From NCBI GenBank assembly GCA_963753075.1, contig CAVWAR010000003.1, positions 8,299-72,298 on the forward strand: a stretch of 64,000 nt of DNA, read 5' to 3'. Both the position numbers and the translations under genes were made by a program. Positions 8,849-42,271 of the stretch are shown piece by piece; the first letter of the stretch is position 1; each line of letters starts with the position of its first letter. Under the pieces are notes generated by a model that saw nothing but the letters and a program-made list of their open reading frames with translations, was not told the DNA's origin and did not search any database. The DNA comes from an uncultured Actinomycetes bacterium (lineage in GTDB: Bacteria > Actinomycetota > Actinomycetes > S36-B12 > CAIYMF01).

Positions 8849-9307
8849 CTGACCTGCGACGATACGGAGCCGACGCCCGGACTCGAACCGGGAACCACCT
8901 GTTTACAGGGCGGCTCACAAGGGTCTATGGCGTCATTCCGGGTTCGAACATCGTGCTCCGGGGTGGTCGAAACCGTCCATCGGATCGCGCTGGGTTCAGG
9001 CACGTAGTGACAAGTTAGTTACAGGCGACTGGCAGGAATCGGACACCGGGCGCCGGCAGGAAGCCAGGCCCGACAGCGGCCTCGCCGCGCCGAGGTTTGC
9101 AGCCTGGCCGTCGCAAGATCGGCAGCCGGTCTGGCTTCCGATTCTGCCGCTACGCCGCTACACGACGAGCGCCCGTCCGGGAATCGTGCTCAGACGGCCC
9201 AGATCGCACCGTCCGACGTGTAGCGGGACCTCCTGCTTGTAGCGGGCAGCAGCGCCCACCCGGACAACCACAGCGATAGCGAGACCGCAGGGCGCCCATA
9301 GCGCCCA
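8849..9307 (-). repeat. 459-bp non-coding module, copy 1 (direct repeat of 41813-42271)
   Basis: Aligned base for base with copy 2 at a constant offset of 32,964 bp. Five substitutions (8865, 8908, 9084, 9279, 9299). No credible ORF. Dense nested complementarity. Confidence 0.9.
8865..8983 (-). ncRNA. tRNA-like / tmRNA-TLD-like domain at the 3' end of the 459-bp module (copy 1)
   Basis: Minus strand: CCGAUG (8983-8978) pairs with CGUCGG (8875-8870). GAC-GGUUUCGAC D-loop-like segment. GACCACC (8968-8962) pairs with GGUGGUU (8899-8893). Canonical T-arm CCCGG-UUCGAGU-CCGGG (8892-8876), then C-U-CCG (CCA in copy 2). No anticodon arm, so not a canonical tRNA. Confidence 0.45.
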
Positions 9308-9497
9308 CTATGACGCGGCCCAATGCGGGCATCTGGGGGCCCTACTGGGCGAGTCTCAGCGTTGCCCGATCGGGCGCCTCGCCCCCCTGCGACCAGGCAG
9401 GACGTTCGGGACTTCTGGTCAGTAGCCATACTCCCGAAGAGACGGGCCGAAGACCAGTGTCATCGGACCCGAAGGCAGGACCATCGACTGCCCTCTT

Positions 9498-9514
9498 GGC
9501 CGATAGGCCGCCTA
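9498..9514. repeat. short GC-rich motif family member (CGATAGGCCGCCTA), cut by IS630
   Basis: GGCCGATAGGCCGCCTA ends at the TA where the IS630 left end begins. An intact version would be the palindrome CGATAGG-CCG-CCTATCG. Confidence 0.5.
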
Positions 9515-10558
9515 CTAGTGTCGTGCGGCATTAGTTCCTTGACAGTTGCGTGGGGGTGCGGGATGCTGTGGCATGCCGTTGATGACGCAGGTGCTGCAAC
9601 TGGATGACGACGACCGGGCGACCTTGGAAGCGTGGTCGAGGTCGACCGCGATCCGGGCCGGGTTGGTGACCCGGGCGCGGATCGTGCTGGCCGCAGCCGA
9701 CGGGCTGGGCACGACGGAGACCGCCCACAGGGTGGGGGTGTCGCGGCCAACGGTGATCCAGTGGCGCGACCGGTACCTGGAGCAAGGCTTGGCCGGGTTG
9801 GACGACGCGCCGCGGTCGGGGCGGCCGAAAGAGGTCGACGAGGCCGCGATCCTGGCCGCGACGCTGGACCCGCCGCCGGAGAGGTTGGGGGTGACGCACT
9901 GGTCGACCCGGCTGCTGGGCGCCCACCTGGGGATCTCGGATGCCACGGTGGCCCGCTGCTGGCGCAAGTACCTGCTGCAGCCGTGGCGACGGGGTGCGTT
10001 CAAGTTCTCCACCGACCCGCAGTTGGAGGCCAAGATCCGCGATGTCGTCGGGCTGTATCTGAACCCGCCGACCAACGCGATCGTGCTGTGCGTGGATGAG
10101 AAGTCCCAGATCCAGGCCCTGGACCGGACCGCCCCGATCCTGCCGATCCGCCCCGGGCTGCCGGAGAAGGCCACCCACGACTACAAGCGCAACGGCACCA
10201 CGACGCTGTTCGCCGCCCTCGAGGTGGCCACCGGGAAGGTGACCGATCAGTGCTATGACCGGCACGGCAAGGCCGAGTTCCTCGATTTCATGAAGAAGGT
10301 CGCCCGCGCCTACCCCGACCAGGAACTGCGCGTTGTCGTGGACAACTACCACACCCACAAGCACGCTGAGATCAACGCGTGGCTCGAGAAGAACCCACGG
10401 ATCACGCTGCACTTCACCCCGACATCGGGGTCGTGGCTGAATCTGGTCGAGGTGTTCTTCGGGATCATCACCCGCCAAGCCATCCGCCGCGGCACCTTCG
10501 CCAGCGTCAAGGAACTCGTCACCGCGATCAGCACGTTCATCGACGGCTGGAACGACCG
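9515..10558 (+). mobile_element. IS630-family element, 3'-truncated
   Basis: Left end follows a TA dinucleotide (9513-9514), the usual IS630/Tc1 target. The transposase ORF stops matching the family at about 10558, where otsB-like sequence starts. No right inverted repeat present. Confidence 0.7.
9573..10558 (+). pseudogene. IS630-family transposase, lacking the C-terminal ~25-30 aa
   Basis: MPLMTQVLQLDDDDRATLEAW..., HTH (RPTVIQWRDRYLEQG), DDE region (CVDEKSQIQALDR ... VVDNYHTHKH ... HFTPTSGSWLNLVE). Ends at ...FIDGWNDR and then reads out of frame through otsB-derived DNA. Confidence 0.8.
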
Positions 10559-11308
10559 CTGGCGGAGTTCCTGGACTTCGACGGCACGCTCTCCCCGATC
10601 GTCGAGCAGCCCGAGGCCGCCGCCCCCGCCACCGGTGCCACCGAGGCCTTGCGTCGGCTGGCCGCCCTGCGCCCAGTCGCGATCATCAGCGGACGCGACC
10701 TGCCCGACGTTCGCCGTCGGGTTGGTGTCGACGGGATCTGGTACGCCGGAAGCCACGGGTTCCAGTTGGCCGGCCCAGCTGGGCAGACCCATGAGTACGA
10801 GGGCGCTAGCGCAGTCACGGAGGCCCTGGATGAGGCCGAACGCGAGCTCCAGGAGCGCCTCGGCGACATTGCCGGTGCGCAAGTCGAGCGGAGGAAGTAC
10901 TCCGTGACGTCGCACTGCCGCAGGGTGTCTCCGGATCGCGCCGGCGAGGTGATCGACGTGGTTGCCGAGGTCGCCTCGCTGCACCCCGAGGTTCGTGCGA
11001 CCAAGGCGCGCAAGGCCGCAGAACTCGTACCGGACCTGACATGGGACAAGGGCCACGCCTTGCGGTGGTTGCTCAGACAGTTGGCACCGCCCGAGGTGCG
11101 CCTGACGCCCGTCTACGCCGGCGACGACCTGACCGACGAGGACGTCCTGGAGGCGATCTACGACGTGGGGTTGGGGATCGTCGTCCGCAGCTCAGAGCAC
11201 GGGGATAGTGAGACGGCCGCCCGCGTGGGTGTGGATGACCCTGACCAGTTGGTCGCGGCGCTGGGGCGGATCGCGGACCTGGTGCAATCCCGCGAGGTAG
11301 CGTCCTGA
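10559..11308 (+). pseudogene. otsB: trehalose-6-phosphate phosphatase (HAD, OtsB-like), 5'-truncated at the IS630 junction
   Basis: Frame of ORF 10379..11308 reads LAEFLDFDGTLSPIV (DxDGT HAD motif I), ISGRD (motif II), KG...YAGDDLTDED (motifs III/IV). No start codon or native N-terminus; everything upstream is IS630. Confidence 0.65.
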
Positions 11309-13694
11309 TGTCGTCGTGGGAGTTGCGCTACGACTCGTACGACCCGACTGACGAGGGGCTGCGGGAAGCCCTGTGCACCCTCGGGAACGGCTACTTCGCC
11401 ACTCGCGGGGCGGCACCCGAGACATCGGCCGACGACACCCACTACCCGGGGACCTACGCGGCCGGGCTGTTCAACCGGCTGTCGGAGGAGGTGTCGGGGC
11501 GGGTCATCGACAACGAGAGCCTTGTCAATCTGCCGAACTGGCTGCCGCTGACCTTCCGGATCGAGGGGGGGCCGTGGTTCGACATCGACGCCGTGGAACT
11601 GCTCGAGTACACCCAGCGCCTCGACCTGCGTTCGGCGGTGCTCGTCCGCCGGCTGCGGTTCCGCGACGGGCAGGGCCGGACCACGTCCGTGGCTCAGCGT
11701 CGGATCGTGAGCATGCGCAACCCGCACGTCGGCGCTCTTGAGACCACGATCCTCGCCGAGGACTGGTCCGGGCAACTCGAGATCCGCTCCGCGATCGACG
11801 CGGGCGTGAAGAACTCGCTCGTTCCACGCTATCGCGCGTTGGCCAGCGTCCACCTGGACCTGCTCGGGACCTCCTGCGCGCACGGAAACTCCGGCCGTCG
11901 ACGCCCAGACCACGACGTCACATGTGCGCGTGGCCGTGGCCGCCGGACAACTATCCACAGCAACGGTGACGACGTCGGCCCGAGAGCCAGCGCATCGAGC
12001 CGGGGCACCGGGTCGGCCATGACCTCAGCGTCCGCGCCGAGGCGGGCCAACCGCTCACCGTGGAGAAGGTGGTATCCATCTTCACCAGCCGGGACGCCGC
12101 CATCGAATCCCCGGCGAGCCAGGCATGCCGCATGATGCCGCGGCTGGGCCGGTTCGAGGACCTTCTTCAAGAGCATGTCGTGGCGTGGCGGCACCTATGG
12201 GACAGATTCCACTTCGAAGTGGACGGCAGCGACGACGAATTCGCATCCTTCGGCTGCACGTGCTCCATCTGCTGCAGACGCTCTCGCGGCACACGGCGGA
12301 GATCGACGTCGGGGTGCCCGCACGGGGGTTGCACGGCGAGGCCTACCGAGGGCACATCTCTGGGACGAGATCTTCGTGCTCCCACTGCTCAACCTCCGGC
12401 TCCCCGAGGTCACGCGCTCGCTGTTGCTGTATCGCTACCGCCGGCTGGGCGAAGCGCGGTACGCGGCCCGGGCCGAGGGGTTCGCCGGGGCGATGTTCCC
12501 GTGGCAGTCCGGCAGCGACGGGCGCGAAGAGACCCAACAGGTCCACCTCAATCCCCTGTCGGGACGCTGGAACCTGGATCCCACGCACCGACAGCGGCAC
12601 GTCGGTATCGCCGTTGCGTACAACGTTTGGGAGTGCAACGAGGCCACCGAGGACCGCGAGTTCCTGATGGACTACGGCGCCGAGATGCTGCTGGAGATCG
12701 CCCGGTTCTGGGCCTGCATCGCCAAGTACGACAAGATCCAGGACCGATACGTGATCGAGGGTGTCATCGCCCCGACGAGTTCCACTCCGCCTACCCCGGG
12801 TCCGAGGAGGCCGGGCTGCGCAACAACGCGTACACGAACGTCATGGCCGCCTGGGTCGTGGAACGCGCCATCGAGGTCTTGAGCATCCTGCCTGAGCGCC
12901 GGGCCCACGAGTTGCGCGAGACGCTGGAACTGGGGCCGACAAGGCTCGAGCGCTGGCGCGACATGACCCGCAAGATGTCTGTGCCGTTCCACGACGGGGA
13001 GATCATCAGCCAGTTCGAGGGGTACGAAGACCTCAAGGAGTTGGACTGGGACGCCTACCGGGCCAGGTACGGCGATATCCAGCGGCTCGACCGAATCCTC
13101 GAAGCTGAGGGCAAGAGCCCGAACGACTACAAGCTGTCGAAGCAGGCCGACGTCCTCATGCTCTTCTATCTGCTGTCGGTGGGCGAGGTGCAGGAGCTGC
13201 TCAGTCGGCTGGGCTACACGCTCTCGGACCAGGCCGTGACACGCACGATCGAGTACTACGAGGAACGCAGCTCGCACGGGTCCACCCTGAACGCGATCGT
13301 CCACGCCTGGGCGATGGTGCAGACGCACCCCGAGCTCGCCATCGAGTTCTACGAGAACGCCCTGATCTCCGACGTTGCCGACGTCCAGGGGGGCACGACC
13401 CGCGAGGGAATCGACCTGGCCGCGATGAGCGGCAGCGTTGACCTCCTCCAACGCTGCTTCGCCGGCTTGGAGACACGTGCCGGGCGCCTTCTGCTCGACC
13501 CGACATGGCCGGAGAGCCTGGGCACGCTGACGTTCTCGATCGTGTATCGCGACCTGCCGTTGACCATCCGAGTGTCATCGGACGTGGTACAGGTCACCGC
13601 GGCGTCCGGCATGCGGCGTCCCATCGAGGTCGGGTGCCGGGGCCGAGTCCAGCAACTGGACGCGGGCTCGAGTGTGCAGTTCGCGCTGACCTAG
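11308..13694 (+). pseudogene. glycoside hydrolase family 65 (trehalose/maltose/kojibiose phosphorylase-like), multiply frameshifted
   Basis: GH65-like segments sit in alternating frames: MSSWELRYDSYDPTDEGLREALCTLGNGYFATRGA... (11308), [25 protein letters not shown] (12060 frame), [14 protein letters not shown]...[11 protein letters not shown] (12125 frame), [11 protein letters not shown]...[15 protein letters not shown] (12175 frame), then PDEFHSAYPG...LLDPTWPESLGTLTF to stop 13694. At least five frame changes lie between about 11880 and 12780. ATG overlaps the otsB stop (TGATG). Confidence 0.8.
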
Positions 13695-13699
13695 ACCGG

Positions 13700-14079
13700 G
13701 ACCAGCGCTCCTGTAGATAGGTTTCGATCAGGTGTTCGAGTGCGGGCGGGATGGGGACTGACCGGTGCTTGTCGCCCTTGCTGTGCCGGACCGACAGCTG
13801 GCGTTCGCCGGGGGAGCCCTCCACATCGTCCACGGCCAGCGCCAGCAGCTCGGCGTGACGCAGCCCGGTCAGCGCCAGAGTGGTGATGATCGCGAAGCCC
13901 CGGGTCGGCCACGCCCGCCGGGCGGGGATGGCACCGGTCTGCAGGGTGGTGATCAGGGCGCCAAGGTCGGTGTCGGTGAACGCCGAGGGGGCACCACTGC
14001 GGCCTTCGGTTTGGGCAGCACGCCCATCGGGTTGCCGGTGATCACGCCGCGGCCAGCAGGTGGGCGAAGGTGTCAGCAC
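13700..14079 (-). pseudogene. tyrosine integrase fragment (central/catalytic part only)
   Basis: ...AIITTLALTGLRHAELLALAVDDVEGSPGERQLSVRHSKGDKHRSVPIPPALEHLIETYLQ is the box-I Arg region of phage-type integrases. The C-terminal HxxR..Y part is missing on this strand. Confidence 0.6.
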
Positions 14080-14149
14080 GTCCGGGCGGCGGAGGCACTG
14101 CGCGTGGCGTTGATGTCGTCGGGGCGGTAGGCGATGGGCACGGTCGAGG

Positions 14150-14374
14150 TCAATGCCCCTGGCCGCGGTGCTCCGCGGCTGCGGCGCGGGCCTCGGACTG
14201 GGGCATCAGCTCGCTCTCCAGCCCGTGGCAGTGGCAGAACCACTTCGCGTTCTGCGGACCGAATGAGACGGCCTCGATGTCATGGCCGGGGCACGGGGCA
14301 TCGGACGGATGCCGGTGGTCGCGGGCGTGGACGGCAGCAGTCGCGGCGACGACGACGAAATGATCGATGGCCAT
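14150..14374 (-). CDS. small Cys/His-rich hypothetical protein (74 aa)
   Basis: ATG preceded by strong GAGGAGG Shine-Dalgarno. High GC3. Contains CPGHD...WFCHCHG, a possible metal-binding motif. No family recognised. Confidence 0.5.
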   Translation of the reverse strand: MAIDHFVVVAATAAVHARDHRHPSDAPCPGHDIEAVSFGPQNAKWFCHCHGLESELMPQSEARAAAAEHRGQGH

Positions 14375-14789
14375 TGGTCCTCCTCAGCGCCAGCCTGTCG
14401 TTGATCTCGCCAGTTGCCGGGGGCCAATTCACTGGCTCACCCAAACGGAGTAGTCACGCCGGGACGTCGCGGCTACCCGGCCGAGGCTTCTCCGGGCGAT
14501 GGCGGCGTTGTTGCCCGTGACGGTCACGAATCCGCACGCCGCTTCGACCTCGGGCCCCATCGAGCCCTTGAGCAGGTCGAAGGTCCGCCAGCTCACCCGG
14601 CGACACCGTTCCTGAAGCGCGGTTGCTTGCGCCTGACCCGCTGGCGCAGTCCCAGCTGACGGTCGACTTTCCGGTCACAGGACTCCGTGACCGAGAACCC
14701 GGAGCAACCACCTGCGGATCAAGAGCCGGCGCCAGCGTGGTCATGAGCGAGGGTCACCGAAAGCGGATCGACCGGCGGCTGCCTACCCG

Positions 14790-14990
14790 ATGGTGCAGCG
14801 GGTCGCCGAGTCTGCACGGATCCCTCAGCACATCGGCCCGGACTCGCTCCGGCGCGCCGCGGTCACCAACGCCCTGGACGCCGGCGTCCCGCTGCGAGAC
14901 GCGCAGATCCTGGCCCGGCACCACACCGTGCCGGTCGAGGCTGCCGCGGGCGCGGTCGTAGTGCTCGGTGGTGCGTGGGTCGGTCACTTC
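14790..14990 (+). pseudogene. tyrosine integrase C-terminal remnant with internally inverted last segment
   Basis: Plus strand reads ...RIPQHIGPDSLRRAAVTNALDAGVPLRDAQILARH up to about 14925. The expected continuation DPRTTEHYDRARGSLDRH is encoded on the opposite strand at about 14990-14930. Confidence 0.55.
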
Positions 14991-15046
14991 CTCACCGCAC
15001 ACGTCGCCGGCGCGTGAACGAGGTTGCCCTCGCAAGACTTCGCAAG

Positions 15047-15406
15047 ATGACTACATCGTCCGACAGACGGTATGCTGCTGTCGTGGGCGAAGCGATCCAG
15101 TGGGACTCGGCGGCCATCGCGTACATCCGCTCCCGTGGCGAGCGCTACCCCGACGGCGTCGGCATCGAACCGCAGTGGACTCAGGAGGTCATGGCAGATG
15201 TGGACCTCCTGGCCCTCGAACCTGATCCGAAGTCCCGAATGGGGGCTTCGCGGTTCATCGGCCGCTCCCGATCCGCCGGACGGGTGCTCGTCGTGATCGC
15301 TTATCGCGACATGGACGGTGACCTGCACGGCATCAATGCCTGGCCCGCAACCGGCGGGGACCTGAAGCTGTACCAGCAAGGAGACGATGATGGCCAAGAC
15401 GATTGA
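15047..15406 (+). CDS. putative toxin (BrnT-like), upstream partner of an RHH antitoxin
   Basis: 119 aa from ATG 15047 (a GTG near 15083 is an alternative). IQWDSAAIAYIRSRG...PDPKSRMGASRFIGRSRSAGRVLVVIAYRDMDGDLHGINAWPATGGDLKLY resembles the BrnT-type layout. Overlaps the next gene by 20 nt. Confidence 0.45.
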   Translation: MTTSSDRRYAAVVGEAIQWDSAAIAYIRSRGERYPDGVGIEPQWTQEVMADVDLLALEPDPKSRMGASRFIGRSRSAGRVLVVIAYRDMDGDLHGINAWPATGGDLKLYQQGDDDGQDD

Positions 15407-15635
15407 TCCAGCACTTGCCGAGCGACTCCGCCGCGAGTCCGAACAGACCAAGGACGACGCCTACCCCGCCGGCACGGCGGGCCGGCGGCCGAACCGCCAG
15501 AAGGTCTACTCCGTCCGGCTGAGCGCCGAGGAAGAGGCTGAGGTCCAAAGAGTCGCCGCGGCCAAGCACCTACCCGCGTCAACGCTTGTCCGGTCCTGGA
15601 TCCTGGAACGACTCGACCGAGAACGCTCCGCCTGA
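15387..15635 (+). CDS. ribbon-helix-helix (CopG/BrnA-like) antitoxin
   Basis: 82 aa. KVYSVRLSAEEEAEVQRVAAAKHLPASTLVRSWILERLDRE is a typical RHH beta-strand/helix-helix motif. Confidence 0.6.
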   Translation: MMAKTIDPALAERLRRESEQTKDDAYPAGTAGRRPNRQKVYSVRLSAEEEAEVQRVAAAKHLPASTLVRSWILERLDRERSA

Positions 15636-15727
15636 CCTGCCCCACGCCGCCGCCTGTCGGCATGCGGGCGACCAACACTGCTGTCTGCTCAGATTCGGGT
15701 GAGCGGATCGGCTCGCGCAAGGAACGC

Positions 15728-15751
15728 GCGTCCTTTCGCCGCCTATCGCGC
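15728..15751 (+). repeat. short GC-rich motif family member
   Basis: GCGTCCTTTCGCCGCCTATCGCGC, identical over 24 nt to 22991-23014. Confidence 0.7.
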
Positions 15752-16061
15752 ACCGTGCGGAAGGCATGACAGCGCCCAGATTGACGCGGCACCGAATATG
15801 GGCGGCTGGTGATGGCACGGGTGTCGGCCGGACGGTTCCGCCGGCCCGACCCGGTGACCCGGGCCTCGGTTGAGAGCAACTGCTGGTGCGCGCGGCCCGC
15901 TGGGTGTGGCCACGCAGGCCGTGCGGTATCACGCGATCTGGTCAGCCGAACGACACGGCTCGAGGGGATGGAGATCCACAGGGCGGCGAGGGACTCGCCG
16001 CTGACCTCCCCCCAAGCCTGAAATGCTCGCTCGGCCCTGCCCGAGTTGGGGTGGCCCGGCC

Positions 16062-17594
16062 TCAGGGCGCGGGGGTGCATGTGGGGTAGGGCTGGGCGTT
16101 GCCCCCGACGAGGAGGTTGAAGAGCTCGGTGAGCTCCGCGCAGGTGCGTGGGCCCAGTTTCGGGTTGAGTGACGACTCCACGTCGAGCAGTCCCCAAGCC
16201 ATCGTGCTGGCAGCGAGCTCGACTCCACGGTCGCCCCAAGCGACGTCCGCGGAGGCCCAGGACTCGAGGCCGGCCAGTTCGAGGAAGGCCTTCCGCGTGT
16301 CGGTGCTGACGTGGTCGTCGATCCAGGCGTGTGCCAACTGGTGCAGGGTAGTGGTCCTGGCGGCGTCGGTCCATCGGTCGCAGCCGTCGCCCACGCAGAT
16401 GGCGGTCTGGAAGCAGAGGGTCACCTCTCGGTCCGCGATCAGTCCGACGAACTCGTCGCACTTGTCAGTACGCCTCTCGAGGAAGGTCACGCTGTTCACC
16501 ACGGGCGTGGGGAGCCCGGCGGCGGTGAACCTGCCGAAGGCCCATTCGACCAGCCCGCTCAAGCCCTCTGTCCCGTTGAACACCTCCACCGCGTGACCCG
16601 CCAGGGCCAGGGTGTCGGTCAGCTCGATCGTGACAGCGGGCGGGAGGGTCACCTCGTCCCACCACCCGGCAGGGAGCACACCGCCGGTGCACCGGACCAG
16701 GTCGTCTACACGGTGGTGACGGTGCCCGGCGACGATGAGTCCGTCGGCGTCGAGGTCGAGCACGATCGCCAGGTGACCCGGGCACCCGCGGCCGTCGTCG
16801 ACGGTCACGAGCAAGACCTGGGTCTCCAGCGGCGGCGGGTCATCCCGCCAGGTCGGGTTCCCGGCCGCGAAGTCGGCCGGTCCGCCGAAGTCGGCCAGCG
16901 AGTCCAACGTGACCCCGGGCAGCCCGCCGGCAGCGACACCGGCCTCGGCAAGAGTCCCGATCTGTGAGACTCCCGCCCGCCGCACGTCCGCCATGCTGTC
17001 GCGCACGGTGGCGTCCTGGGCATAGAGGACCTGCGCGGCACTGGCATCCGCTGACGCCCATGCGGCGATGTAGTCGCGTGCGCGCTGATGGATCTCGAGG
17101 CGGCGGCTATCAGGCGCCCCATTGCCCGTGCGCCAGGACAGCTCCGACCCGGCATACACCTCGGAGGTGATCCCGCGGGTACCGATCTGTTCGATGAACG
17201 CCGCGTGGAACGGGCTTCTCTCCTCGGGCGAGATCAGCGCCAACTCGACCGCCCCGCTCTGCGACAGGTAGATCGGTGCCGCTGCTGAGCGCACCAACCT
17301 GTAGGGACTCCACTGGGTGGCCACGTACGCGAGGGCGGCCTCCTGGCCCACGACCGTCTCGCGGAGCGTGAGGCCGCCGTGGTCGAGAACCACGTCCGGG
17401 TCGAGGAACGGGCGCAGGTTGATCACACCCTGTCGCTGGGCGTCGTGGAAGTTGGTGAACCACTGCTCTGCCACCGTGGGGGTCGGACTGGACCCGGAGG
17501 GATCCGACTCGGCGGGCCCGCCACACGCCGCACCCGCGGCGAGCGTCAGGCCGACGAGCACTGTCACCAGGCGCCGGGACCACGACATGCCCAT
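16062..17594 (-). CDS. lipoprotein of unknown function, tandem paralog A
   Basis: 510 aa. Lipobox LTLAAGAAC. Two NTF2/SnoaL-like-looking N-terminal segments. C-terminal LHQLAHAWIDDH (HExxH-like with Gln in place of Glu). Confidence 0.6.
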   Translation of the reverse strand: MGMSWSRRLVTVLVGLTLAAGAACGGPAESDPSGSSPTPTVAEQWFTNFHDAQRQGVINLRPFLDPDVVLDHGGLTLRETVVGQEAALAYVATQWSPYRLVRSAAAPIYLSQSGAVELALISPEERSPFHAAFIEQIGTRGITSEVYAGSELSWRTGNGAPDSRRLEIHQRARDYIAAWASADASAAQVLYAQDATVRDSMADVRRAGVSQIGTLAEAGVAAGGLPGVTLDSLADFGGPADFAAGNPTWRDDPPPLETQVLLVTVDDGRGCPGHLAIVLDLDADGLIVAGHRHHRVDDLVRCTGGVLPAGWWDEVTLPPAVTIELTDTLALAGHAVEVFNGTEGLSGLVEWAFGRFTAAGLPTPVVNSVTFLERRTDKCDEFVGLIADREVTLCFQTAICVGDGCDRWTDAARTTTLHQLAHAWIDDHVSTDTRKAFLELAGLESWASADVAWGDRGVELAASTMAWGLLDVESSLNPKLGPRTCAELTELFNLLVGGNAQPYPTCTPAP

Positions 17595-17597
17595 CGG

Positions 17598-19109
17598 TCA
17601 CATCCCCTGAGCCTGGGCAGCTTCAGGCTCAGCGCAGGACCTCGGGTCCGGGAACGCACCAGTCAGTTCCTGGAAGTCCGCCGCCAACGACTCACAGGAG
17701 GCCGCGCCCAGCCGGGGATCGACGACGTACGGCTCGTCCATCAACCCCCACGTGAGGGTCTCCGCAGCCAGCTCAGTGGCCTGCTCGGCCCACGTCAGGC
17801 CCGGGTCGGACCACACCATGCCCCGCTCCTGCGCGAACTCGTCGGCACTCACCTGGGGCAGGTTCTCAGCCAGCCACACGCGCGCCAGCTGGTGCAGCAC
17901 AGCCGCCTTGACCGGTGTCGGCCATGGCTGGCATTCCTCGTCGGGGCATGCTTGGTCGGTGGTGACGAGTACCGCGATGTCAGTGGCGTCTCCGCCGTGA
18001 ACGAACCCGTAGCGAGCCTCCGGATCCCCGTCCGGGGCAAGGAAGGTAACCGAGGTGGGGATCGGCGCCGGCAGGACAGCGTCGGCGAAGCGCCCCAAGC
18101 CCCAGGACAGCAGCTGCTCGAGCTCGGGCGTGCCGTTCCAGATGGCGACCTGCTCGCCGTGGACGTCCAGCATGCCCGTCCGGTTGATCCCGGTGGGATC
18201 GGGTACCGTGACCGCATCCCACCACCCGGTCGGCAGGTCGGCCGGATCGGTGCATCGCCGCAGTGCATCCACCCGGTGGTACCGCTCCTCTCGGACGATC
18301 AGCCCGTCCGCGCCGTCGAGCCAGAGGGCAACGGCCATCTCCCCGGGGCACCCGGAGCCGTCATCGACGGTGAGGAGCTGGACACCGCGGTCGCTGTCCC
18401 CGTTGCCGTAGAACGCCGACCCCCCCTCGTCGGCGATCGTGTGCCGCACGGCACCGGTCAGCGCCCCACCCGAAACCGGGCCCTCAGCAGCAGCTCCGAT
18501 CGCCGATGGGCCCTCGAAGCGCAATCCGGCCATCGAGTCCCGTACGACTGCCCCGTCGGCGTAGAACCTCTGGACGGCCGACGGATCACCCGACGACCAT
18601 GCGCGCAGGTACTCATCCCACCAGCCGCGCTGGTTGGGAACCAGCTCGCCGAAGTACTCGCCCACCAGGCCTGACGCGGCGAACATCTGCGAGGTGATCC
18701 CCCGGTCGGAGACCGTGTACACGTAGGCGGTCGAGAAGTGGACCGGATACTCGGGGACGTCCAGCCTCGCCGGATCGACCGCGCCGTCCAGGGACAGGTA
18801 GATCGGCTCCTCGGCGGTCACTGCCAGTGAGTCCGGGTCGGCACTGGTGATCCAGGAGTCGCGCATGGCCTGGACCCTCGCGGGCCGCCCGGTGTACCAG
18901 CCCGACTCGGAGCGCATGTCAACGTCCACATCGTCGGCGTAGAACAGGGCCGCGTTGGTGACGCCGGTCGCCTGCGCCTCGTGGAACGCAGCGAAGAACT
19001 CCTCGGCCGGCGCCGCCCACGGTTGCTCCGGCGGTGAACAGCCCACCATCAAACTGGTCCCCAGCAGTCCCACCGCCAAGGACCTAGGCAACCACGCCCC
19101 CGTCCTCAC
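17598..19109 (-). CDS. lipoprotein of unknown function, tandem paralog B
   Basis: 503 aa. Lipobox SLMVGC. Collinear with paralog A (shared VTFL, CPG..A..L.LD.DGLIV, HHRVD.L.RCT, GWWD.VT.P). Motif here is LHQLARVW. 3-nt spacer to paralog A. Confidence 0.6.
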   Translation of the reverse strand: MRTGAWLPRSLAVGLLGTSLMVGCSPPEQPWAAPAEEFFAAFHEAQATGVTNAALFYADDVDVDMRSESGWYTGRPARVQAMRDSWITSADPDSLAVTAEEPIYLSLDGAVDPARLDVPEYPVHFSTAYVYTVSDRGITSQMFAASGLVGEYFGELVPNQRGWWDEYLRAWSSGDPSAVQRFYADGAVVRDSMAGLRFEGPSAIGAAAEGPVSGGALTGAVRHTIADEGGSAFYGNGDSDRGVQLLTVDDGSGCPGEMAVALWLDGADGLIVREERYHRVDALRRCTDPADLPTGWWDAVTVPDPTGINRTGMLDVHGEQVAIWNGTPELEQLLSWGLGRFADAVLPAPIPTSVTFLAPDGDPEARYGFVHGGDATDIAVLVTTDQACPDEECQPWPTPVKAAVLHQLARVWLAENLPQVSADEFAQERGMVWSDPGLTWAEQATELAAETLTWGLMDEPYVVDPRLGAASCESLAADFQELTGAFPDPRSCAEPEAAQAQGM

Positions 19110-19400
19110 AGCTCCTGTCTACGCTCACAGGGTGCGACGGCAACAGGGCCTTTGTGCCTTTCGATGAAGCTCATGGCCCCCCTCCCCGCCTAGCCGGGTT
19201 CAACGCCCGGGCGGCACGCCGAACGTGGAGGACGTTCCGCCGCGCACGATCGACGAGTGGCAGCGCCGGGTCCGGGTCCCCATAGAAGATCAGAGCACCG
19301 AACAGCCCGGCCGAGCCCCACAGGGTCTGGGTACCAAGATGGAGGCCGAGCAGCGCCGGGGCCCTCAAGACCCTGCGTGGCAGTAGCGCATTCGGGGGCT

Positions 19401-19426
19401 GCGTCCTAGCGCCGCCAGTGGACGCA
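19401..19426 (+). repeat. short GC-rich motif family member
   Basis: GCGTCCTAGCGCCGCCAGTGGACGC; the ends GCGTCC/GGACGC can form a 6-bp stem. Confidence 0.5.
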
Positions 19427-19496
19427 CCGCGTCGAGAGCATGGCCGGTCTCGGCTGTGCGGGCGTCGCTACCTAAGACGCAGCCAGACAAGGGGCG

Positions 19497-20300
19497 CGCT
19501 ACCTGCGCTGGATTCGGCAGGGTCCATCTACGACCGCAAGTTGGGCCTGGGCCTTTGGTTCTGGACACGCAGAGCCCGCATTGGCTCCTCTTCCAGTGCA
19601 GTTGCGATCACGGTCTTCATCACGACCTTCCCCGCCGAGCTCCCGCCAAGTGTGTTGGGCCGCTCACACCGTCTCCGGGACAGTCTGTGGTTGGTGGTTG
19701 GGCGATGGTGGTGTTGGGGGCGTAGCGTGGAAGTGCCGACCGGGGAGGGTCGGGTATTGGGTCCACGGTTCCTCGGTCACCGGAGGAGGAGCCATGTCGG
19801 GCCAATCACGTGCAGCGGATCCTGGGAATCACCAGCACGGCGCGGGCGACCGCCATGGGCGGCGTGGCCGGCGGTGTGGGTTCGGGGCAGTGCTGGCCGG
19901 GGTGATGGTCGCGGGCCTGGTCAGTGCCCCCCCGGTGGTCGGGGCCAGTCCCGGGGTGGTGCCGGGATCGGTGCCTCAGGTCGTGGCCGCAGCACCGGCG
20001 GGCCCACCCTCGGTGGTCGTGCCGATGGCCAAGAAGAAGAAGCGGCCGCGGGTGCGGTTCGCCAGCAAGAAGCGGCTGGTGGTGAACATTGATCCGGACC
20101 TGCGGCGCAAGAAGAACTGGAAGTTCAAGCTGCAGCGCAAGTCCAAGGGCAAGTGGCGCAAGGTCGGGATCTACCGCACCCGGGGCAAGTCCGAGATCCG
20201 CAAGCTCAAAGTGAAGAAGGGCAAGTACCGGGTGAAGGTGTACGCCCGACCCGGGTACCGGAAGGTGACCACCAAGGCCTACCGATTCACCCCCACCACC
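19497..20300 (+). repeat. right arm of inverted duplication (leader plus 5' part of PD40 paralog)
   Basis: See 7700-8481; the same sequence in inverted orientation. Confidence 0.8.
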
Positions 20301-21873: not shown

Positions 21874-22041
21874 CCGTGCGCACGCACTACCCTGGCCGCG
21901 CCTCGCGGTTCGCTGGGGGCAGGCCGCGGGCCCTCGACACCGACGGCTACGCCGACCTGGTGAGCGGGGCGCCGCTGGAAGCGGCCGGGAGCCTGGACTA
22001 GGCCGGACGGGTCGCGTCGGCATGAGCGCCGCCTGGAACCT

Positions 22042-22066
22042 GCGTCATTGCGCCGCGAAACGTGCG
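22042..22066 (+). repeat. short GC-rich motif family member
   Basis: GCGTCATTGCGCCGCGAAACGTGCG. First 15 nt identical to 265-279; 23/25 identical to 30338-30362. Confidence 0.7.
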
Positions 22067-22170
22067 GGGCTGCGACGGGCGACTCGGCACGCCGGATGCC
22101 GTGAAAGCCAGGCTGCCTCCCGAGGGCTGGGGCGGCTTTCCGCGGGGGAGGCGACCTCGGCCGGTTCGGC

Positions 22171-22990: not shown

Positions 22991-23014
22991 GCGTCCTTTC
23001 GCCGCCTATCGCGC
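22991..23014 (+). repeat. short GC-rich motif family member
   Basis: GCGTCCTTTCGCCGCCTATCGCGC in the lsr2 upstream region. Confidence 0.7.
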
Positions 23015-23672: not shown

Positions 23673-23703
23673 CCCGGGTGTTTCACGGGTGAGTGGTGAT
23701 CTC

Positions 23704-26730: not shown

Positions 26731-26752
26731 GTCTTTGTGGCCTGCTGGAAGG

Positions 26753-36316: not shown

Positions 36317-36565
36317 ATGGCCGAGACCGAACCTGCCAAGCCCAAACCAGCCAAGAGGCTGGCATGGACCCCCAGGCGGGTCCTGATCCTGGTCCTGGTC
36401 CTGCTTGCAGTAGTCCTAATCGTGGCCAACTTCGACTCCGCCGAGGTGAACCTCCTCGTCGCGACCATCAGGATGCCCTTGGCGCTGATGCTTGCCCTCT
36501 TGTTCGCCCTCGGTTGGGCAGCAGCGGCGCTCACATCGCGGCTACGCGCCGCAGGCAAACACTGA
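36317..36565 (+). CDS. small membrane protein, LapA/DUF1049-like
   Basis: 82 aa. Two hydrophobic helices (VLILVLVLLAVVLIVANF, LALMLALLFALGWAAAAL) around SAEVNLLVATIRMPL. GGAGG upstream. Confidence 0.55.
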   Translation: MAETEPAKPKPAKRLAWTPRRVLILVLVLLAVVLIVANFDSAEVNLLVATIRMPLALMLALLFALGWAAAALTSRLRAAGKH

Positions 36566-38367
36566 GCCTGGGGCTGTAGCGCTCACGCCGACTGCCGGAG
36601 ACTGCCTGCGCTCCGGGGAGTCCACCGGCAGAGTAGGCATCACGGGAGGATCGCGCGGATGCCGCAATCGAATCACGTCAAGGCTCGGCCGCCGTGGCTG
36701 CGGAGGTCCCCGACATGTGACGAACCAGATCGCGAACCCCGACGTGGGCATGCGCGTCGCCGACGGCATGGGAAGTCCCGACAACGTAGTGCCGGCTGAC
36801 GAGGTCGCGGTCCTGGCCGGCACCTCACACGCAACTTGGCGGCTGGCCGCGCGATGCGTCTATTCGCCGCGTATGACTGTCAAGCAGTGGCCGGATCCTC
36901 TGCAGCGCGCTCCCTCTCGCAGCGAGTACGGGATCACGACTGCACGGCCGGCCTCGGCCGCTTGAGCTACCGCGATGTCCCCCGACCACCGCTCAATCGA
37001 GCAGGCCGCGGCGTGCGACGTCGTGACCACGTCGATCCGCACGAGGTCCCTCACCCCTGGATGTCGGTTCAGTCGCATCTGATCGCGGAACGGGAGCACA
37101 CTGTTCATTGCGACCCAGAGCGTCCATAGTTGCGTCCGGCATGGTGGTGTACGGGTTGCCCGGTGATCGTGTCGCTACCGGCGTAGTGGCGGTCATCGCG
37201 TAGATCCTTCGAGTGATCTCTCACAACCGACTCGAAGAGGACGTTTCACGATGACCGCCACTCCCATTATTGACCCTGAGCAGTTCCTGCACGAGCAGTT
37301 GGCCCAGGCTTCCCCGGACCTGATGCGTGAGCTGTTGGCCACGTTCGTCAATGCCCTGGTCTCGGCGCAGGCTGACGTGGTCTGCGGTGCCCCGTACGGC
37401 CAGTCCAGCCCGGAGCGGACCAACTCCCGCAACGGCTACCGGCACCGTGACCTGGACACCCGGGTGGGCACGATCGACGTCGCGATCCCGAAGCTGCGCT
37501 CGGGGACGTACTTCCCCGAGTGGCTGCTGCAGCGGCGTCGCCGGGCCGAAGCAGCCCTGACCTCGGTGGTGGCCACCTGTTACCTGCTCGGGGTGTCCAC
37601 CCGGCGGATGGACCGTCTGGTCCAGTCGTTGGGCATCACCGGGCTGTCCAAGTCGCAGGTGTCGGAGATGGCCAAGGACCTCGACGCTCATGTGGAGGAC
37701 TTCCGGACCCGCCCGTTGGACGCCGGGCCGTACACGTTCGTGGCCGCGGACGCGTTGATGATGAAGGTTCGCGAGGGTGGGCGGGTGATCAACGTCGCCG
37801 TGCTCGTCGCGACCGGGGTGAACGCTGACGGGCACCGGGAGATCCTCGGCGTGCAGGTGAACACCGGTGAGACCGGGGCCGGCTGGTTGGCGTTCTTCCG
37901 TGACCTGGTGGCCCGCGGGCTGTCCGGGGTCGCCCTGGTCACCTCGGATGCCCACGCCGGCCTCATCGAAGCGATCGCCGCCACGCTGCCCGGGGCCAGC
38001 TGGCAGAGGTGCAGAACCCACTACGCGGCCAACCTGAGGTCGGTGACGCCGAAGAGCTCGTGGCCGTGGGTGAAAGCGTTGCTGCACTCGGTCTACGACC
38101 AACCCGACAAGGAGTCCGTGCATGAGCAGTTCGACCGGATCCTCGACGCCCTGACCGACAAGCTGCCGGCCGTCGCCGAGCACCTCGACGGAGCCCGGGG
38201 TGACGTGTTGGCGTTCACCGTGTTCCCGAAGGAGATCTGGCGACAGATCTGGTCCAACAACCCCATATCCGTTAACCGGCCCTCGGGCGACATCTGTGCT
38301 CAGCGGGGCTGGGGTCCCGCCCTGGTCGGGGGTTGCGGGGAAGGCTGGCTGGTGGGAGGTGGTCGCG

Positions 38368-39420
38368 GTGACGGTGAGCGTGGTCGACGACGGGAACGGG
38401 GTCCGGCTGGACGGCGACTGGGAGGGCGTGGCGGACGCGAACCGGTTCCTGGGGCACCTACGGGCGCGGGCGTTCTCCCCGGCCACGGTGCGGGCCTATG
38501 CCTTCGATCTGGTGAACCTGGCCCGCTTCACCGAGCAGCGGCGACTGCCGGTGGCCAAGGTCACGGCGATGGACGTGTTCGACTGGATCGACTGGCAGCG
38601 CACCGAGGTCCCCAACTCGGGCACGGTGGTGGAGTTGCGCCCGCGGGGCGCTGCGATCGCCACAGTGAACCGGCGGGTCGCCGCCGCTCGGGGCTTCTAC
38701 GGGTTCTTGGTGATGGCCGGCCAACTTGCGGTCAACCCGGTGCCGACCGGTCGGCGAGGTGCGGGGCTGCGCCCCGCGGCCCGGGGTGTGTTGGGGCATC
38801 TGGGTCCGGGTCGGCCCCGTGGTGGGGGCCGGCTGCTGCGTGAACCGAGCCGGCTGCCGGAGTCGCTGCCGCTGACCGAGGTCGGGGCGTTCCTGACCGA
38901 TCTGCGCTCTCACCGGGACCGGGCGATCGTGCTGCTGATGCTGTTCGGCGGCCTGCGCGCAGCGGAGGTCCGCGGGCTGCGGCTGGCTGATGTCGACCAG
39001 GGCCGTCGCCGGGTCCGGGTGCTGGGCAAGGGGTCCCGGGAACGGGTCGTCCCCGTCGACCAGGCGTTCTTCGCCGAGCTCGGTGCCTACCTGCGCCACG
39101 AACGTCCGGCCGGGTTGGCCACGCAGCAGTGTTTCGTGGTGCTGCGCGGCCCCACCGCCGGGCAGCCGCTGACCGAGGCGGGGATGCGTTCCCTGTTCCG
39201 CCGGCATCGGGACACCTCCGGGGCGGTCCGGGTCCGCCCGCACCGGCTGCGCCACACCTACGGCACCGAGTTGGCCGCCGCGGGGATCGACCTGCTCGCG
39301 TTGCGGGCGCTGATGGGGCACGCCAGCCCGGAGACGACCAGCCGCTACGTCCACCTGTCCGTGGAACACCTGGCTGCGGAGTATGCCGCCGCGAGCATCA
39401 CCCTGCAGGACCGGTCATGA
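38368..39420 (+). CDS. tyrosine recombinase (smaller subunit, TnpA-like)
   Basis: 350 aa from GTG 38368 (GGGAGG 9 nt upstream). SAM-like N-domain (FLGHLRARAFSPATVRAYAFDL). Catalytic LFGGLRAAEVRGLRL, PHRLRHTYGTEL, GHASPETTSRYVHLS. Confidence 0.8.
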   Translation: MTVSVVDDGNGVRLDGDWEGVADANRFLGHLRARAFSPATVRAYAFDLVNLARFTEQRRLPVAKVTAMDVFDWIDWQRTEVPNSGTVVELRPRGAAIATVNRRVAAARGFYGFLVMAGQLAVNPVPTGRRGAGLRPAARGVLGHLGPGRPRGGGRLLREPSRLPESLPLTEVGAFLTDLRSHRDRAIVLLMLFGGLRAAEVRGLRLADVDQGRRRVRVLGKGSRERVVPVDQAFFAELGAYLRHERPAGLATQQCFVVLRGPTAGQPLTEAGMRSLFRRHRDTSGAVRVRPHRLRHTYGTELAAAGIDLLALRALMGHASPETTSRYVHLSVEHLAAEYAAASITLQDRS

Positions 39421-41357
39421 GCCCGGCGTCCGCGGTCGCGGTCACCCGGTCACCGGGCCTGCTCGCCGATTACCTGGCGCACGTCGACGGGCTGGACCTC
39501 TCGGGCCGGGCCCGCCGAGACCGGCGGGTTGCCGCGACCCGGTTCCTGGCCACGTTCGGCGATCTCGAGGAGTGGATGGCCCGCCCGGCCCCGGCACGGG
39601 TGGTGGACCTCAAGCGCACCGGGGCCTGGCCGTTGGTCGTGTTCGCGATCGCCGGCGGGCACGTCCGTCTGGATCTGGAACTGGCCGGGGTGAAGAACCT
39701 GACCGGACTCGGGGCGGCGATCCGGGCCACCGACCCCGACGGGTTCGCCCGCGCCCAGGTCGCCGGACTGCGACTGGGCTGGGGCCAAGCCTGGGTCGAC
39801 ACCGTCCTGGGCGAGTGCCTGGCGGTGATCCTGGCCTGCACCGGGCGGCACCTGGACCAGCTCGACGACGAAGTGATCGACGCGTTCGACACCGACCTGG
39901 CCACGATGATGACGATCCCCGCCTCGTCGCGGCGGGCCTACCGGGCCCGGCTGGCCAGCCTGCGCCGGATCCTGTTCGAGCTACGGATCACCGATCAGCC
40001 GCCGCGTCGCCGGCCGTGGTCCCGCACGATCGAGCGGCGGTTCGACGACGTGGCCATGCCCGCCGAGATCCGCACCGTGCTGCTGCGCTACGTCCACGTC
40101 AGGGCCACCGTCCTGCGACCGAACTCGGTCGAGTCGCTGATCGATGACCTGATGCCGTTCGCCGAGTTCCTGCACGCCCACCACCCGCAGGTGGTCAGCC
40201 TGCGCCAGTTGAGCCGGGACCACATCGAAGAGTTCCTGACCTTCAACCGGCACCGGAACTGGCGGGGCCGCAAAGCCCGGCCGGTCCCGGTCAGCGACAG
40301 CGTCGCCCAGTCCGCGGTCCTGACCCTGCGCAACATGTTCGAGGACATCACCGCCTGGGGCTGGGCCGAGGCCCCCACCCGCCAACTGGTGTTCACGGCC
40401 GACATCCCGAAGCTGGGCCGCCCGCTGCCCCGAGCCCTGCCCCCGACGGTCGACGCCGCCCTGATGGCCGCGGTCGCGGACCTGCCCGACCTGTTCGCCG
40501 CCGTCGGCCTGCAGGTCCTCCGCGGTGCTGGGTTGCGCGTCGGGGAACTGCTGGACCTGGAATGCGATGCGATCCTGGACTACGGCCCGGCCGGGACCTG
40601 GCTGCGCGTCCCGCTGGGCAAGCTGGCCACCGAACGCGCTGTCCCGTTGAACCCGGGCACCCTGGCCGTGTTGGACTCGTGGGCCACCCAACGCGCTACT
40701 CACCGCCCGATCCCGCACCCCCGCACCGGGCGGCCCACCCACTTCCTGTTCACCGAGCACGGCCGCCGCCTCGGCGCGACCCGGCTACGCAACGGGCTGC
40801 AGAGCGCGATCCACACCGCCGGTTTGACCGATCCCACCGGAGCGCCGCTGCGGATCACCCCGCACCAGTTGCGCCACACCTACGCCACCGAACTGGCCAA
40901 CGCCGGCATGTCGCTGCAAGCCCTGATGGCGCTCCTCGGACACGTCACCTCCGAGATGACCATCCGCTACGCCACCCTGGCACCGACGACCCTGAACACC
41001 GCCTACGAGAACGCCGTCGCAGGGCTGCGCCCTCAGCTGCCGATCGCCGCACCCGCCCGGCCGATCATCCCGGACCGGATCACCTGGCTGAACGCCGAGA
41101 TGATCAAGACCCGACTCGGCACCGGGTACTGCGCCCGCCACCACGCCGCCGGGCCCTGCGACTACGCCAACATCTGCGAGACCTGCGACAACTTCACCCC
41201 CGCACCCGAGTTCGCCCCGGCCCTGGCCGACCAACTCGCCGACACCCGAGCCCTGCACGCAGACGCCGAGCAGCGAGGCTGGACCAACGAAGCGCAACGC
41301 CACCAACGCGTCAGCCACGCCCTCGAAACCCACCTCCGCCTCCTGCAACCCCGCTGA
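39417..41357 (+). CDS. tyrosine recombinase (larger subunit, TnpB-like) with Cys-rich C-terminal tail
   Basis: 646 aa. ATG overlaps the upstream stop (ATGA). Catalytic LRGAGLRVGELLDLE, PHQLRHTYATELANAG, GHVTSEMTIRYATLA. Tail GYCARHHAAGPCDYANICETCDNF. Confidence 0.8.
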   Translation: MSPASAVAVTRSPGLLADYLAHVDGLDLSGRARRDRRVAATRFLATFGDLEEWMARPAPARVVDLKRTGAWPLVVFAIAGGHVRLDLELAGVKNLTGLGAAIRATDPDGFARAQVAGLRLGWGQAWVDTVLGECLAVILACTGRHLDQLDDEVIDAFDTDLATMMTIPASSRRAYRARLASLRRILFELRITDQPPRRRPWSRTIERRFDDVAMPAEIRTVLLRYVHVRATVLRPNSVESLIDDLMPFAEFLHAHHPQVVSLRQLSRDHIEEFLTFNRHRNWRGRKARPVPVSDSVAQSAVLTLRNMFEDITAWGWAEAPTRQLVFTADIPKLGRPLPRALPPTVDAALMAAVADLPDLFAAVGLQVLRGAGLRVGELLDLECDAILDYGPAGTWLRVPLGKLATERAVPLNPGTLAVLDSWATQRATHRPIPHPRTGRPTHFLFTEHGRRLGATRLRNGLQSAIHTAGLTDPTGAPLRITPHQLRHTYATELANAGMSLQALMALLGHVTSEMTIRYATLAPTTLNTAYENAVAGLRPQLPIAAPARPIIPDRITWLNAEMIKTRLGTGYCARHHAAGPCDYANICETCDNFTPAPEFAPALADQLADTRALHADAEQRGWTNEAQRHQRVSHALETHLRLLQPR

Positions 41358-41812
41358 CCCGGACAACCCCTCGGGATGACTCCCACCCCCAAGGCCGGTT
41401 AAACGAGCGCCTCAACCGGGAGATCCGGCGTCGGACCGACGTCGTCGGGATCTTCCCCGACCGCACCTCGATCATCCGCCTCGTCGGCGCGGTCCTGGCC
41501 GAGCAGCACGACGAATGGGTCGAAGCGAGGCGCTACTTCGGCCTCGACGCCCTGGCCAAAGCCCGCCTCATCCTGACCACCGACCCCGAGGAGGAACCCG
41601 ACACCATCACAGCCCTGTCAGCCTGACCCCAAACGAAGGATCACGCCAACCCCGTACACCACCTCCACGGACTTGACCGCGTCCATCACGTGCTCACGGT
41701 TGGGTTCGGCCGGCTCGGGAGTAGCCTCAACAACAACCGAAGGGGCGGTCGTAGGCAAACTCGTAGGCAAATCCAAGCCCGAGCACCGCGCTCGGCCCAG
41801 CACAAACCCCCC

Positions 41813-42271
41813 CTGACCTGCGACGATATGGAGCCGACGCCCGGACTCGAACCGGGAACCACCTGTTTACAAGGCGGCTCACAAGGGTCTATGGCGTCAT
41901 TCCGGGTTCGAACATCGTGCTCCGGGGTGGTCGAAACCGTCCATCGGATCGCGCTGGGTTCAGGCACGTAGTGACAAGTTAGTTACAGGCGACTGGCAGG
42001 AATCGGACACCGGGCGCCGGCAGGAAGCCAGGCCCGACAGCGGCCTCCCCGCGCCGAGGTTTGCAGCCTGGCCGTCGCAAGATCGGCAGCCGGTCTGGCT
42101 TCCGATTCTGCCGCTACGCCGCTACACGACGAGCGCCCGTCCGGGAATCGTGCTCAGACGGCCCAGATCGCACCGTCCGACGTGTAGCGGGACCTCCTGC
42201 TTGTAGCGGGCAGCAGCGCCCACCCGGACAACCACAGCGATAACGAGACCGCAGGGCGCCCACAGCGCCCA
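41813..42271 (-). repeat. 459-bp non-coding module, copy 2
   Basis: See 8849-9307. Confidence 0.9.
41829..41947 (-). ncRNA. tRNA-like / tmRNA-TLD-like domain (copy 2, ends ...GGCU-CCA)
   Basis: Same architecture as 8865-8983. Here the 3' end reads CGUCGGC-U-CCA, an encoded CCA after a 6-7 bp acceptor-like helix. Confidence 0.45.

Follow-up and report, generated by a model that had tools for sequence, protein, structure and literature searches.

Two 459-bp modules carrying the 3' part of tRNA-Thr(UGU) as probable junctions of a decayed tandem array of integrative elements in an uncultured Actinomycetes bacterium

The window analyzed here comprises 64,000 nucleotides from an uncultured Actinomycetes bacterium (assembly GCA_963753075.1, contig CAVWAR010000003.1, positions 8,299 to 72,298), and contains two direct copies of a 459-bp module, located by a repeat search and MAFFT alignment at 8849-9307 (copy A) and 41813-42271 (copy B). 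The assembly (G000) consists of 17 contigs totalling 3.85 Mb, of which C3 is the window contig; positions are those of the window unless a contig is given. The two copies are identical at 454 of 459 positions, with five substitutions (module positions 17, 60, 236, 431 and 451) and no indels, their starts are 32,964 bp apart, and the identity between them is lost abruptly at both module borders. Such a pair is not attributable to chance, and the two 459-bp direct repeats around about 33 kb that a preliminary description of this DNA had reported are real, with that identity and spacing. A third full copy, 99% identical to copy A, was found at C14:25088-25546, together with module fragments at C8:4941-5007 (module positions 393-459) and C15:13229-13347. 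The features of the two copies and their attachment (att) sites, including the arms labelled P and P-prime, are the following.

8849..9307, minus strand: module copy A, read as the distal (P) arm and att core of a tRNA-Thr(UGU)-specific integrative element, with further copies and homologues of 74-87% identity in relatives
8849..8907, minus strand: att core belonging to copy A, with the final 43 nt of tRNA-Thr(UGU) at 8865-8907 and the following 16 nt at 8849-8864
8650..8848, minus strand: truncated P-prime arm of another element, after core A, with the pair GCCTACAGGGTGCCTAA at 8786-8802
9004..9020, minus strand: phased pair AACTAACTTGTCACTAC in the P arm, 104-115 nt ahead of the core; putative integrase sites of the arm type
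9145..9265, minus strand: module block 2 (module positions 297-417), operator- or promoter-like, with four CCGCTAC(A) repeats, two direct and two inverted
41813..42271, minus strand: module copy B, with its core at 41813-41871 and its P-arm repeat pair at 41968-41984
41679..41812, minus strand: P-prime arm of the GCCTAC class, after core B, with its pair at 41751-41768; cut by the insertion of an IS256 insertion sequence (IS)
36863..37127, minus strand: continuation of the P-prime-side flank beyond IS256, 78-90% identical to sequences of the relatives G025 and G003 that are contiguous with their P-prime arm

On the minus strand, the first 59 positions of the module comprise the 43 nt of tRNA-Thr(UGU) that begin with the anticodon and run to its 3' end, and the 16 nt downstream of it. 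An intact tRNA-Thr(UGU) gene is located at C2:c4834-4909, on a separate contig of the same assembly, and the segment C2:4818-4876 that overlaps it matches module positions 1-59 at 98%. The core of copy B agrees with that of the C2 tRNA over 61 of 61 nt, and copy A displays the core haplotype of the C14 copy. Neither window copy adjoins the 5' half of tRNA-Thr, which is located on C2, and ARAGORN detected no tRNA in the window. An intact tRNA or tmRNA inside the module was considered and rejected, as ARAGORN and Rfam returned none in the window.

The 3' part of a tRNA gene is the classic target of tyrosine integrases. The preliminary description had proposed that the repeats are att-like and include a tRNA-like 3' end, and both proposals hold, the latter as tRNA-Thr(UGU) from its anticodon onward and the former also because homologous modules of relatives delimit islands at this tRNA. 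Its objection that 459 bp exceeds the length of an att core falls, since the core measures only 59-61 bp and the remainder is a conserved arm. Across the species examined, the tRNA-Thr locus retains the 59-bp core with 91-98% conservation. The variable loop of the G000 tRNA core contains a T that is found among the other species only in cores not joined to a tRNA, with the exception of G002, which fits the replacement of the 3' part of the tRNA by an incoming element.

For comparison of the arms, all cores were aligned in the tRNA sense, which is the minus strand of the window. Outside the core, the module constitutes a conserved distal (P) arm of about 400 bp that includes a phased repeat pair of the AACTAC class, GTAACTA-N4-GTCACTAC, at 104-115 nt from the core. 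A pair at the identical offset (-115/-104), of varying class, is present in 13 module-bearing cores from 9 genomes, and phased 7-8-mers stand in pairs at this position ahead of all cores without an attached tRNA 5' half. A second phased pair follows every core examined at +104/+115. Three classes of repeat pair were seen, AACTAC, GCCTAC and TGGTCAC. Wherever an integrase gene survives (G022, G021, G012, and C2 and C13 of G000), the downstream pair sits between the core and this gene; this position identifies it as part of the P-prime arm, which leaves the 400-bp module as the P arm.

The G000 modules belong to the AACTAC class, as does the P-prime arm beside the C2 integrase, and the arms that follow copy A and copy B are both of the GCCTAC class. 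The arm after copy A is shared with C14:24880-25087 and corresponds in class and offset to the arm beside the intact integrase of G022, and that after copy B is homologous to the flank that follows tRNA-Thr in G025 and the module in G003 and G010. Because each core is followed by the P-prime arm of another repeat class, each copy corresponds to a chimeric, attP-like internal junction. The inner arms of the 33-kb segment are thus non-cognate, GCCTAC-class at copy B versus AACTAC-class at copy A; cognate inner arms, of a single class, were found in five of seven array units of relatives. Genome-wide, AACTAC-pair matches are att-linked in five of nine cases. The phased repeats are putative integrase-binding sites, as suggested by their position and by the paradigm of lambda, L5 and pSAM2.

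The genus is represented by metagenome-assembled genomes (MAGs), most of them of the MFD series, under the labels uncultured Actinomycetes or 'Nanopelagicales'. Homologues of the approximately 400-bp part of the module, with 74-87% identity, occur in at least nine of its species, and wherever tRNA-Thr is on the contig too, they are found downstream of it, always in one orientation. Three module copies are stacked within 21 kb of tRNA-Thr in G003, G006 has one copy 8 kb from it, and G022 one homologue 40 kb downstream. In G025, a second core alone is found 6.5 kb from tRNA-Thr, preceded by a TGGTCAC-class arm. Two stacked modules are present in G019 on a contig without tRNA-Thr, and further copies were found in G010, G011, G012 and G023. 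The islands of G006 and G025 contain only cargo genes, such as those for sulfatases, a sulfate permease and Fic.

A broken integrase gene is located next to the tRNA. At C2:3497-4592, convergent with tRNA-Thr and about 240 bp away from it, lies a tyrosine integrase pseudogene, interrupted by a single frameshift and a single in-frame stop; a DUF3631 gene comes next. The counterpart of this pseudogene in G022 is an intact integrase of 374 aa (Phage_integrase domain) beside tRNA-Thr, with 74% identity to the C2 pseudogene, and is followed by DUF3631, NERD, NikA-like and AAA genes. Seven genomes of the genus, among them G000, have integrases of this family in convergent orientation to tRNA-Thr or tRNA-Arg(ACG), and all three G000 copies look disrupted. 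None lies within 9308-41812, where the only recombinases are an unrelated fragment and those nested in IS256, and the segment contains no homologue of the G022-type backbone genes (DUF3631, NERD, NikA-like). The fragment at 13597-14205 was considered as an integrase of the tRNA-Thr family and rejected, as it belongs to a different one. The hallmarks of actinomycete integrative and conjugative elements (AICEs), namely a TraB/FtsK-type transfer gene and a replication gene, were not seen among the open reading frames (ORFs) scanned in the window and in all but 8 kb of the G022 element, which gave DUF3631, NERD, NikA-like and AAA matches.

Another element end was observed at the right end of C13, where the integrase-proximal 8 kb (C13:20221-28166) include a frameshifted integrase as well as DUF3631 and NERD genes with 94-96% protein identity to those of G022; the contig breaks off some 25 nt from where the att core is expected. 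The ends on C2 and C13 imply that at least two such elements entered G000. At tRNA-Arg(ACG), convergent integrases of the family were observed in five species (C2:756662-757899 of G000 and the loci L134, L136, L138 and L140), with phased GTGCAC or AACTAC pairs between tRNA and integrase, preceded by a GGATACCCC-GGGGG palindrome.

We consider each 459-bp copy a fossil recombination junction of integrative elements that targeted tRNA-Thr(UGU), with a probability of roughly three in four, and the 33 kb between the copies a reshuffled, dead stack of island remnants that arose by a known and ordinary route of genome growth. In the mechanism proposed, a heterobivalent tyrosine integrase would recombine the attP of a circular element with the 3' half of the tRNA; integration would rebuild the tRNA and move the earlier junction downstream, and repeated integrations would stack elements behind the tRNA. 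An element of the AACTAC class would have inserted between tRNA-Thr and an older GCCTAC-class remnant. The closest relative, G004, has a GCCTAC-class arm directly after tRNA-Thr, the state expected before this insertion. The P-prime arm after each core would come from a different, presumably older element. The integrase end of the AACTAC-class element would now be C2:1-4817 and its distal end copy B, with a body of at least 37 kb that would cross the right part of the window. The cores of C2 and copy B are identical over 61 nt, and both probably terminate a single element of about 37 kb or more that leaves the window on the right.

The 33-kb stretch between copies B and A would constitute the next interval of the array, a composite remnant resembling a cis-mobilizable element (CIME). 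Insertions of IS elements, frameshifts and a 10.8-kb segmental duplication may have reshaped it, probably along with a deletion or fusion inside it. Like a CIME, the segment keeps both att sites and has no family integrase of its own. The co-oriented copies with element DNA between them are present here, and arrays contiguous with the tRNA are seen in G003, G006 and G022. Since no intact family integrase was found, the segment should no longer be mobile by site-specific recombination; with all three family integrases apparently disrupted, it would be deletable only by homologous recombination. Its loss through RecA-type recombination between the copies is still conceivable, and the role as a deletion substrate suggested in the preliminary description is plausible for this pair.

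Several points weigh against this reconstruction. C2 and C3 are unjoined, so the array is reconstructed across contigs, and the linking of contigs by shared ends revealed no contig that overlaps the left end of C2. To judge from their record names, the MAG group probably consists of long-read metagenome assemblies, and in that case the frameshifts of the pseudogenes could be sequencing errors and the duplication between C3 and C14 could reflect co-assembled strains. The arm mismatch of the 33-kb segment is suggestive of a fusion, but relatives, too, have cognate arms in only part of their units. Finally, the N-terminal regions of the C2 (AACTAC-class) and G022 (GCCTAC-class) integrases are about 80% identical by eye, an uneasy fit with differing arm specificities. 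Several small contigs were also observed to overlap large ones at 96-99.7% (C9 with C17:686241-703366, the end of C10 with the start of C15, and the end of C2 with C13), and strain variants or unresolved repeats may be present in the assembly.

The most conserved part of the module is block 2, whose counterpart in copy B lies at 42109-42229. It is kept in relatives and, in G011, G022 and the third module of G003, is positioned directly upstream of a cassette encoding an XRE-type helix-turn-helix (HTH) protein and a DUF6036 nucleotidyltransferase, which is missing from the G000 modules. In several relatives, this 1.29-kb cassette replaces module positions 171-296 (L034:6851-8433 in G011, L032:14250-15831 in G022 and L028:5503-7088 in G003). 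Its two genes may form a pair with an addiction or regulatory role at the element's distal end. A more speculative extension, for which we see perhaps a modest chance, is that the closely related integrases of the genus share one tRNA-Thr core and use at least three interchangeable arm-site codes (AACTAC, GCCTAC and TGGTCAC) at fixed offsets on either arm. Each integrase would then excise only its own element from a stacked array whose cores are identical, and the approximately 400-bp P arm, sometimes with XRE-HTH and DUF6036, would act in recombination and regulation as a portable module, reassorting among element bodies. The intact integrases by which arm class could be related to integrase phylogeny number only two.

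The DNA between the copies comprises the body attached to module A, a reworked interior and an IS256 composite, with the following features, identified by Pfam where indicated.

9308..19416, no strand: body DNA attached to module A, with an IS630 remnant, otsB, a frameshifted GH65 gene, a recombinase fragment and two lipoprotein genes
9515-10561: IS630-type DDE_3 remnant (Pfam)
10370-11305: otsB (Pfam)
11245-13691: GH65 gene, frameshifted (Pfam)
13597-14205, minus strand: tyrosine-recombinase fragment (Pfam)
15366-15632: ORF resembling DUF6290 ribbon-helix-helix proteins, with a score just below the Pfam cut-off
19417..36862, no strand: reworked interior, with a PD40 pseudogene, a DCC1-like gene, lsr2, IS110, an IS3-like element, IS110 and a copy of trmO
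19581-21870: PD40 gene, frameshifted (Pfam)
23259-23669: lsr2 (Pfam)
25366-26763: IS110 (Pfam)
26735-28095: IS3-like element, between two IS110 (Pfam)
28154-29437: second IS110 (Pfam)
29632-30204: trmO N-terminal domain (Pfam)
37128..41678, plus strand: IS256 with a nested 3.1-kb element that carries two tyrosine recombinases, inside the P-prime arm

Most of the gene list of the preliminary description was confirmed by Pfam, with the corrections that three adjacent IS elements are present instead of four, and that the toxin-antitoxin pair is weakly supported. The interior further holds an alpha/beta hydrolase gene, a membrane protein gene and low-GC ORFs without Pfam matches. The IS256 composite consists of a split Transposase_mut domain and two Phage_integrase ORFs, and is flanked by an 8-bp target duplication, GCGTCCAT, at 37120-37127 and 41679-41686; relatives are contiguous across the insertion site.

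A block of about 10.8 kb that spans the boundary of copy A is duplicated on C14, with 98.2% identity over 8650-9519 and 99.6% over 10556-19416, and the C14 duplicate keeps an intact GH65 of 818 aa. This block with copy A is bracketed by inverted PD40-repeat paralogues at 6040-8622 and 19497-21870, 93-94% identical over about 800 bp at their 5' ends, between which homologous recombination could invert the block and flip copy A.

The trmO-like gene (29588-30359) had appeared housekeeping-like in the preliminary description. It is a two-copy gene, the second copy lying at C10:64311-65082 (93%), and it is 86-94% conserved in relatives within unrelated neighborhoods, where only the gene itself is kept; by these sequence comparisons, it appears to behave as a mobile or hotspot-associated gene. 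In one relative, trmO lies beside a DCC1-like gene, which implies that 22830-29588 is an insertion or rearrangement here.

The outer flanks also consist of accessory-type DNA. On the right, this includes genes for PRiA4_ORF3, TPR and MarR proteins, an ion transporter, a P-type ATPase and ZnuA paralogues. In 30 relatives, neither conserved synteny nor an empty site was found for the outer flanks, only paralogue-level matches of 64-70%, and the GC profile has no step at either repeat; the synteny and GC checks that the preliminary description had proposed thus lend no support to an island with these limits. A tblastx comparison of C3 with the islands of relatives was dominated by high-GC noise, and clearly common to the G022 island are only Fic and one small ORF, both located to the left of the 33-kb segment. 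This Fic gene, with 92% protein identity to that of the G022 island, lies inside a 4.66-kb inverted duplicate between C3:1-4662 and C8:1-4664 (99.6%). Just past the distal edge of module B, about 145 bp at 42306-42450 recur at 86-88% in G004:C64, G010:C19 and G011:C5; the surroundings in these three species do not match, and the stretch is a short conserved element. A dispersed repeat of about 135 bp at 45565-45698 has copies of 82-92% identity at G000:C17:1439300 and in G009, G007 (two) and G003 (two).

The alternative that survives best, although we regard it as unlikely, is that the 33-kb segment is a single old genomic island with the 459-bp copies as its own attL and attR. The copies are indeed direct and att-derived, and the interval approaches the size of the 40-kb G022 element. 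A unit of G003 has the same pairing of a GCCTAC-class inner arm with an AACTAC-class module, which might be a genuine element type. However, neither copy abuts the 5' half of the tRNA, the inner arms are of different classes, and the segment lacks both a family integrase and the G022-type backbone genes. In addition, the C14 duplication crosses the boundary of copy A, the repeats are not accompanied by a GC step, and an empty site with these flanks was found in none of the relatives. The old-island interpretation of the preliminary description is therefore upheld with regard to the att-derived ends, and not with regard to one island with two ends, given the non-cognate arms, the C14 duplication and the uniform GC content at the repeats.

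Still less probable is that the 459-bp unit is a dispersed repeat, either a small non-autonomous module or a portable att cassette, which recombination or transposition would have spread through the genome and whose spacing in the window is incidental. The preliminary description had named copies at many other genomic sites as a sign of such a repeat, and the full copy on C14 and the fragments on C8 and C15, which bring the genome to three full copies and two fragments, mildly favor it. The homology borders are sharp, at position 1 and at about 459-470, also in relatives, and the body DNA attached at copy A is unrelated to that at copy B. Against this, terminal inverted repeats and target duplications are missing, and one border coincides exactly with the border of the att core, shared with a real tRNA. 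The copies of relatives all lie in co-oriented arrays behind tRNA-Thr or beside another P-prime arm, and a large segmental duplication explains two of the three copies. A transposon or miniature inverted-repeat transposable element was rejected for similar reasons: the borders are the edge of the att core and a plain break in homology, and no bases are shared in the flanks of the copies. Among the 25 longest of 34 inverted-repeat pairs, none involves the module.

That the module is a structured non-coding RNA with a tRNA-like 3' domain, and the repeat a duplicated RNA gene, is very improbable: RNAalifold draws long helices in which 9 of 137 pairs change on both sides, and a weak tRNA-Sec-like match (23 bits, E = 0.05) was obtained, but this best score lies below the gathering score of 47 and no Rfam family reaches threshold, the folding energy is unexceptional (z = -1.33, with 10 of 100 shuffles folding as well), covariation contributes little (-3.8 kcal/mol) and derives from only three independent lineages, the most conserved 'helix' corresponds to the CCGCTAC repeats that lie upstream of the XRE-HTH gene in relatives and better fit protein-binding sites, and the gene cassette replaces part of the module in several relatives.

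Fossil junctions at tRNA-Thr(UGU) agree in many respects with known systems. Heterobivalent, lambda-type tyrosine integrases that target tRNA genes include lambda Int and those of mycobacteriophage L5 and the pSAM2-type actinomycete elements. As is generally known of their att sites, the identity segment here extends from the anticodon loop past the 3' end of the tRNA (59-61 bp), the integrase gene is adjacent and convergent to the tRNA, and phased direct repeats lie about 100 bp from the core on both arms. Unlike in these systems, three repeat classes, with putative sites, occur with one core and closely related integrases, the conserved P arm is unusually long (about 400 bp), and an XRE-HTH and DUF6036 cassette is present in some relatives. 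The displaced 3' tDNA fragment at island ends and the integrase beside an intact tRNA are likewise common features of Islander-type tDNA islands; in contrast to these, each of the two window copies is a displaced fragment, the integrases have decayed to pseudogenes and IS elements have reshuffled the content.

The closest parallels are systems in which accretion and CIMEs have been documented, namely the ICESt1/ICESt3 family of Streptococcus thermophilus and the AICE/DAICE stacks at tRNA-Arg of Streptomyces, where tRNA-Thr is also used and chimeric internal junctions of accreted elements have been described (PMC5704250, PMC9513070). The array shares with them several co-oriented att copies derived from one tRNA 3' end, chimeric internal junctions in which the arm of one element is joined to that of the next, interior units without integrase, decayed elements, and a species-dependent content at the same tRNA. 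It differs in that it is not contiguous with the tRNA in the assembly, being scattered and partly duplicated over contigs, and in that the unit between the window copies, known here from sequence alone, has non-cognate arms. The locus thus exemplifies tandem accretion at a tRNA gene in a decayed and rearranged state; the phenomenon is already known, and this instance of it is new.

Interpreted in this way, the long repeat and the 33 kb rich in pseudogenes and IS elements are explained as the wreck of an integration hotspot and not as a new system. C2, C3, C13 and C14 are flagged as pieces of one or more hypervariable island arrays, which matters for annotation, for scaffolding and for judging accessory genes such as the extra trmO, lsr2, otsB/GH65 and the ion transporters. 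The fixed-offset repeat classes provide a simple sequence rule to delimit such elements in related genomes, and tRNA-Thr(UGU) emerges as a recurrent docking site in a little-known Actinomycetes lineage of soil and sediment, recorded mostly as MAGs.

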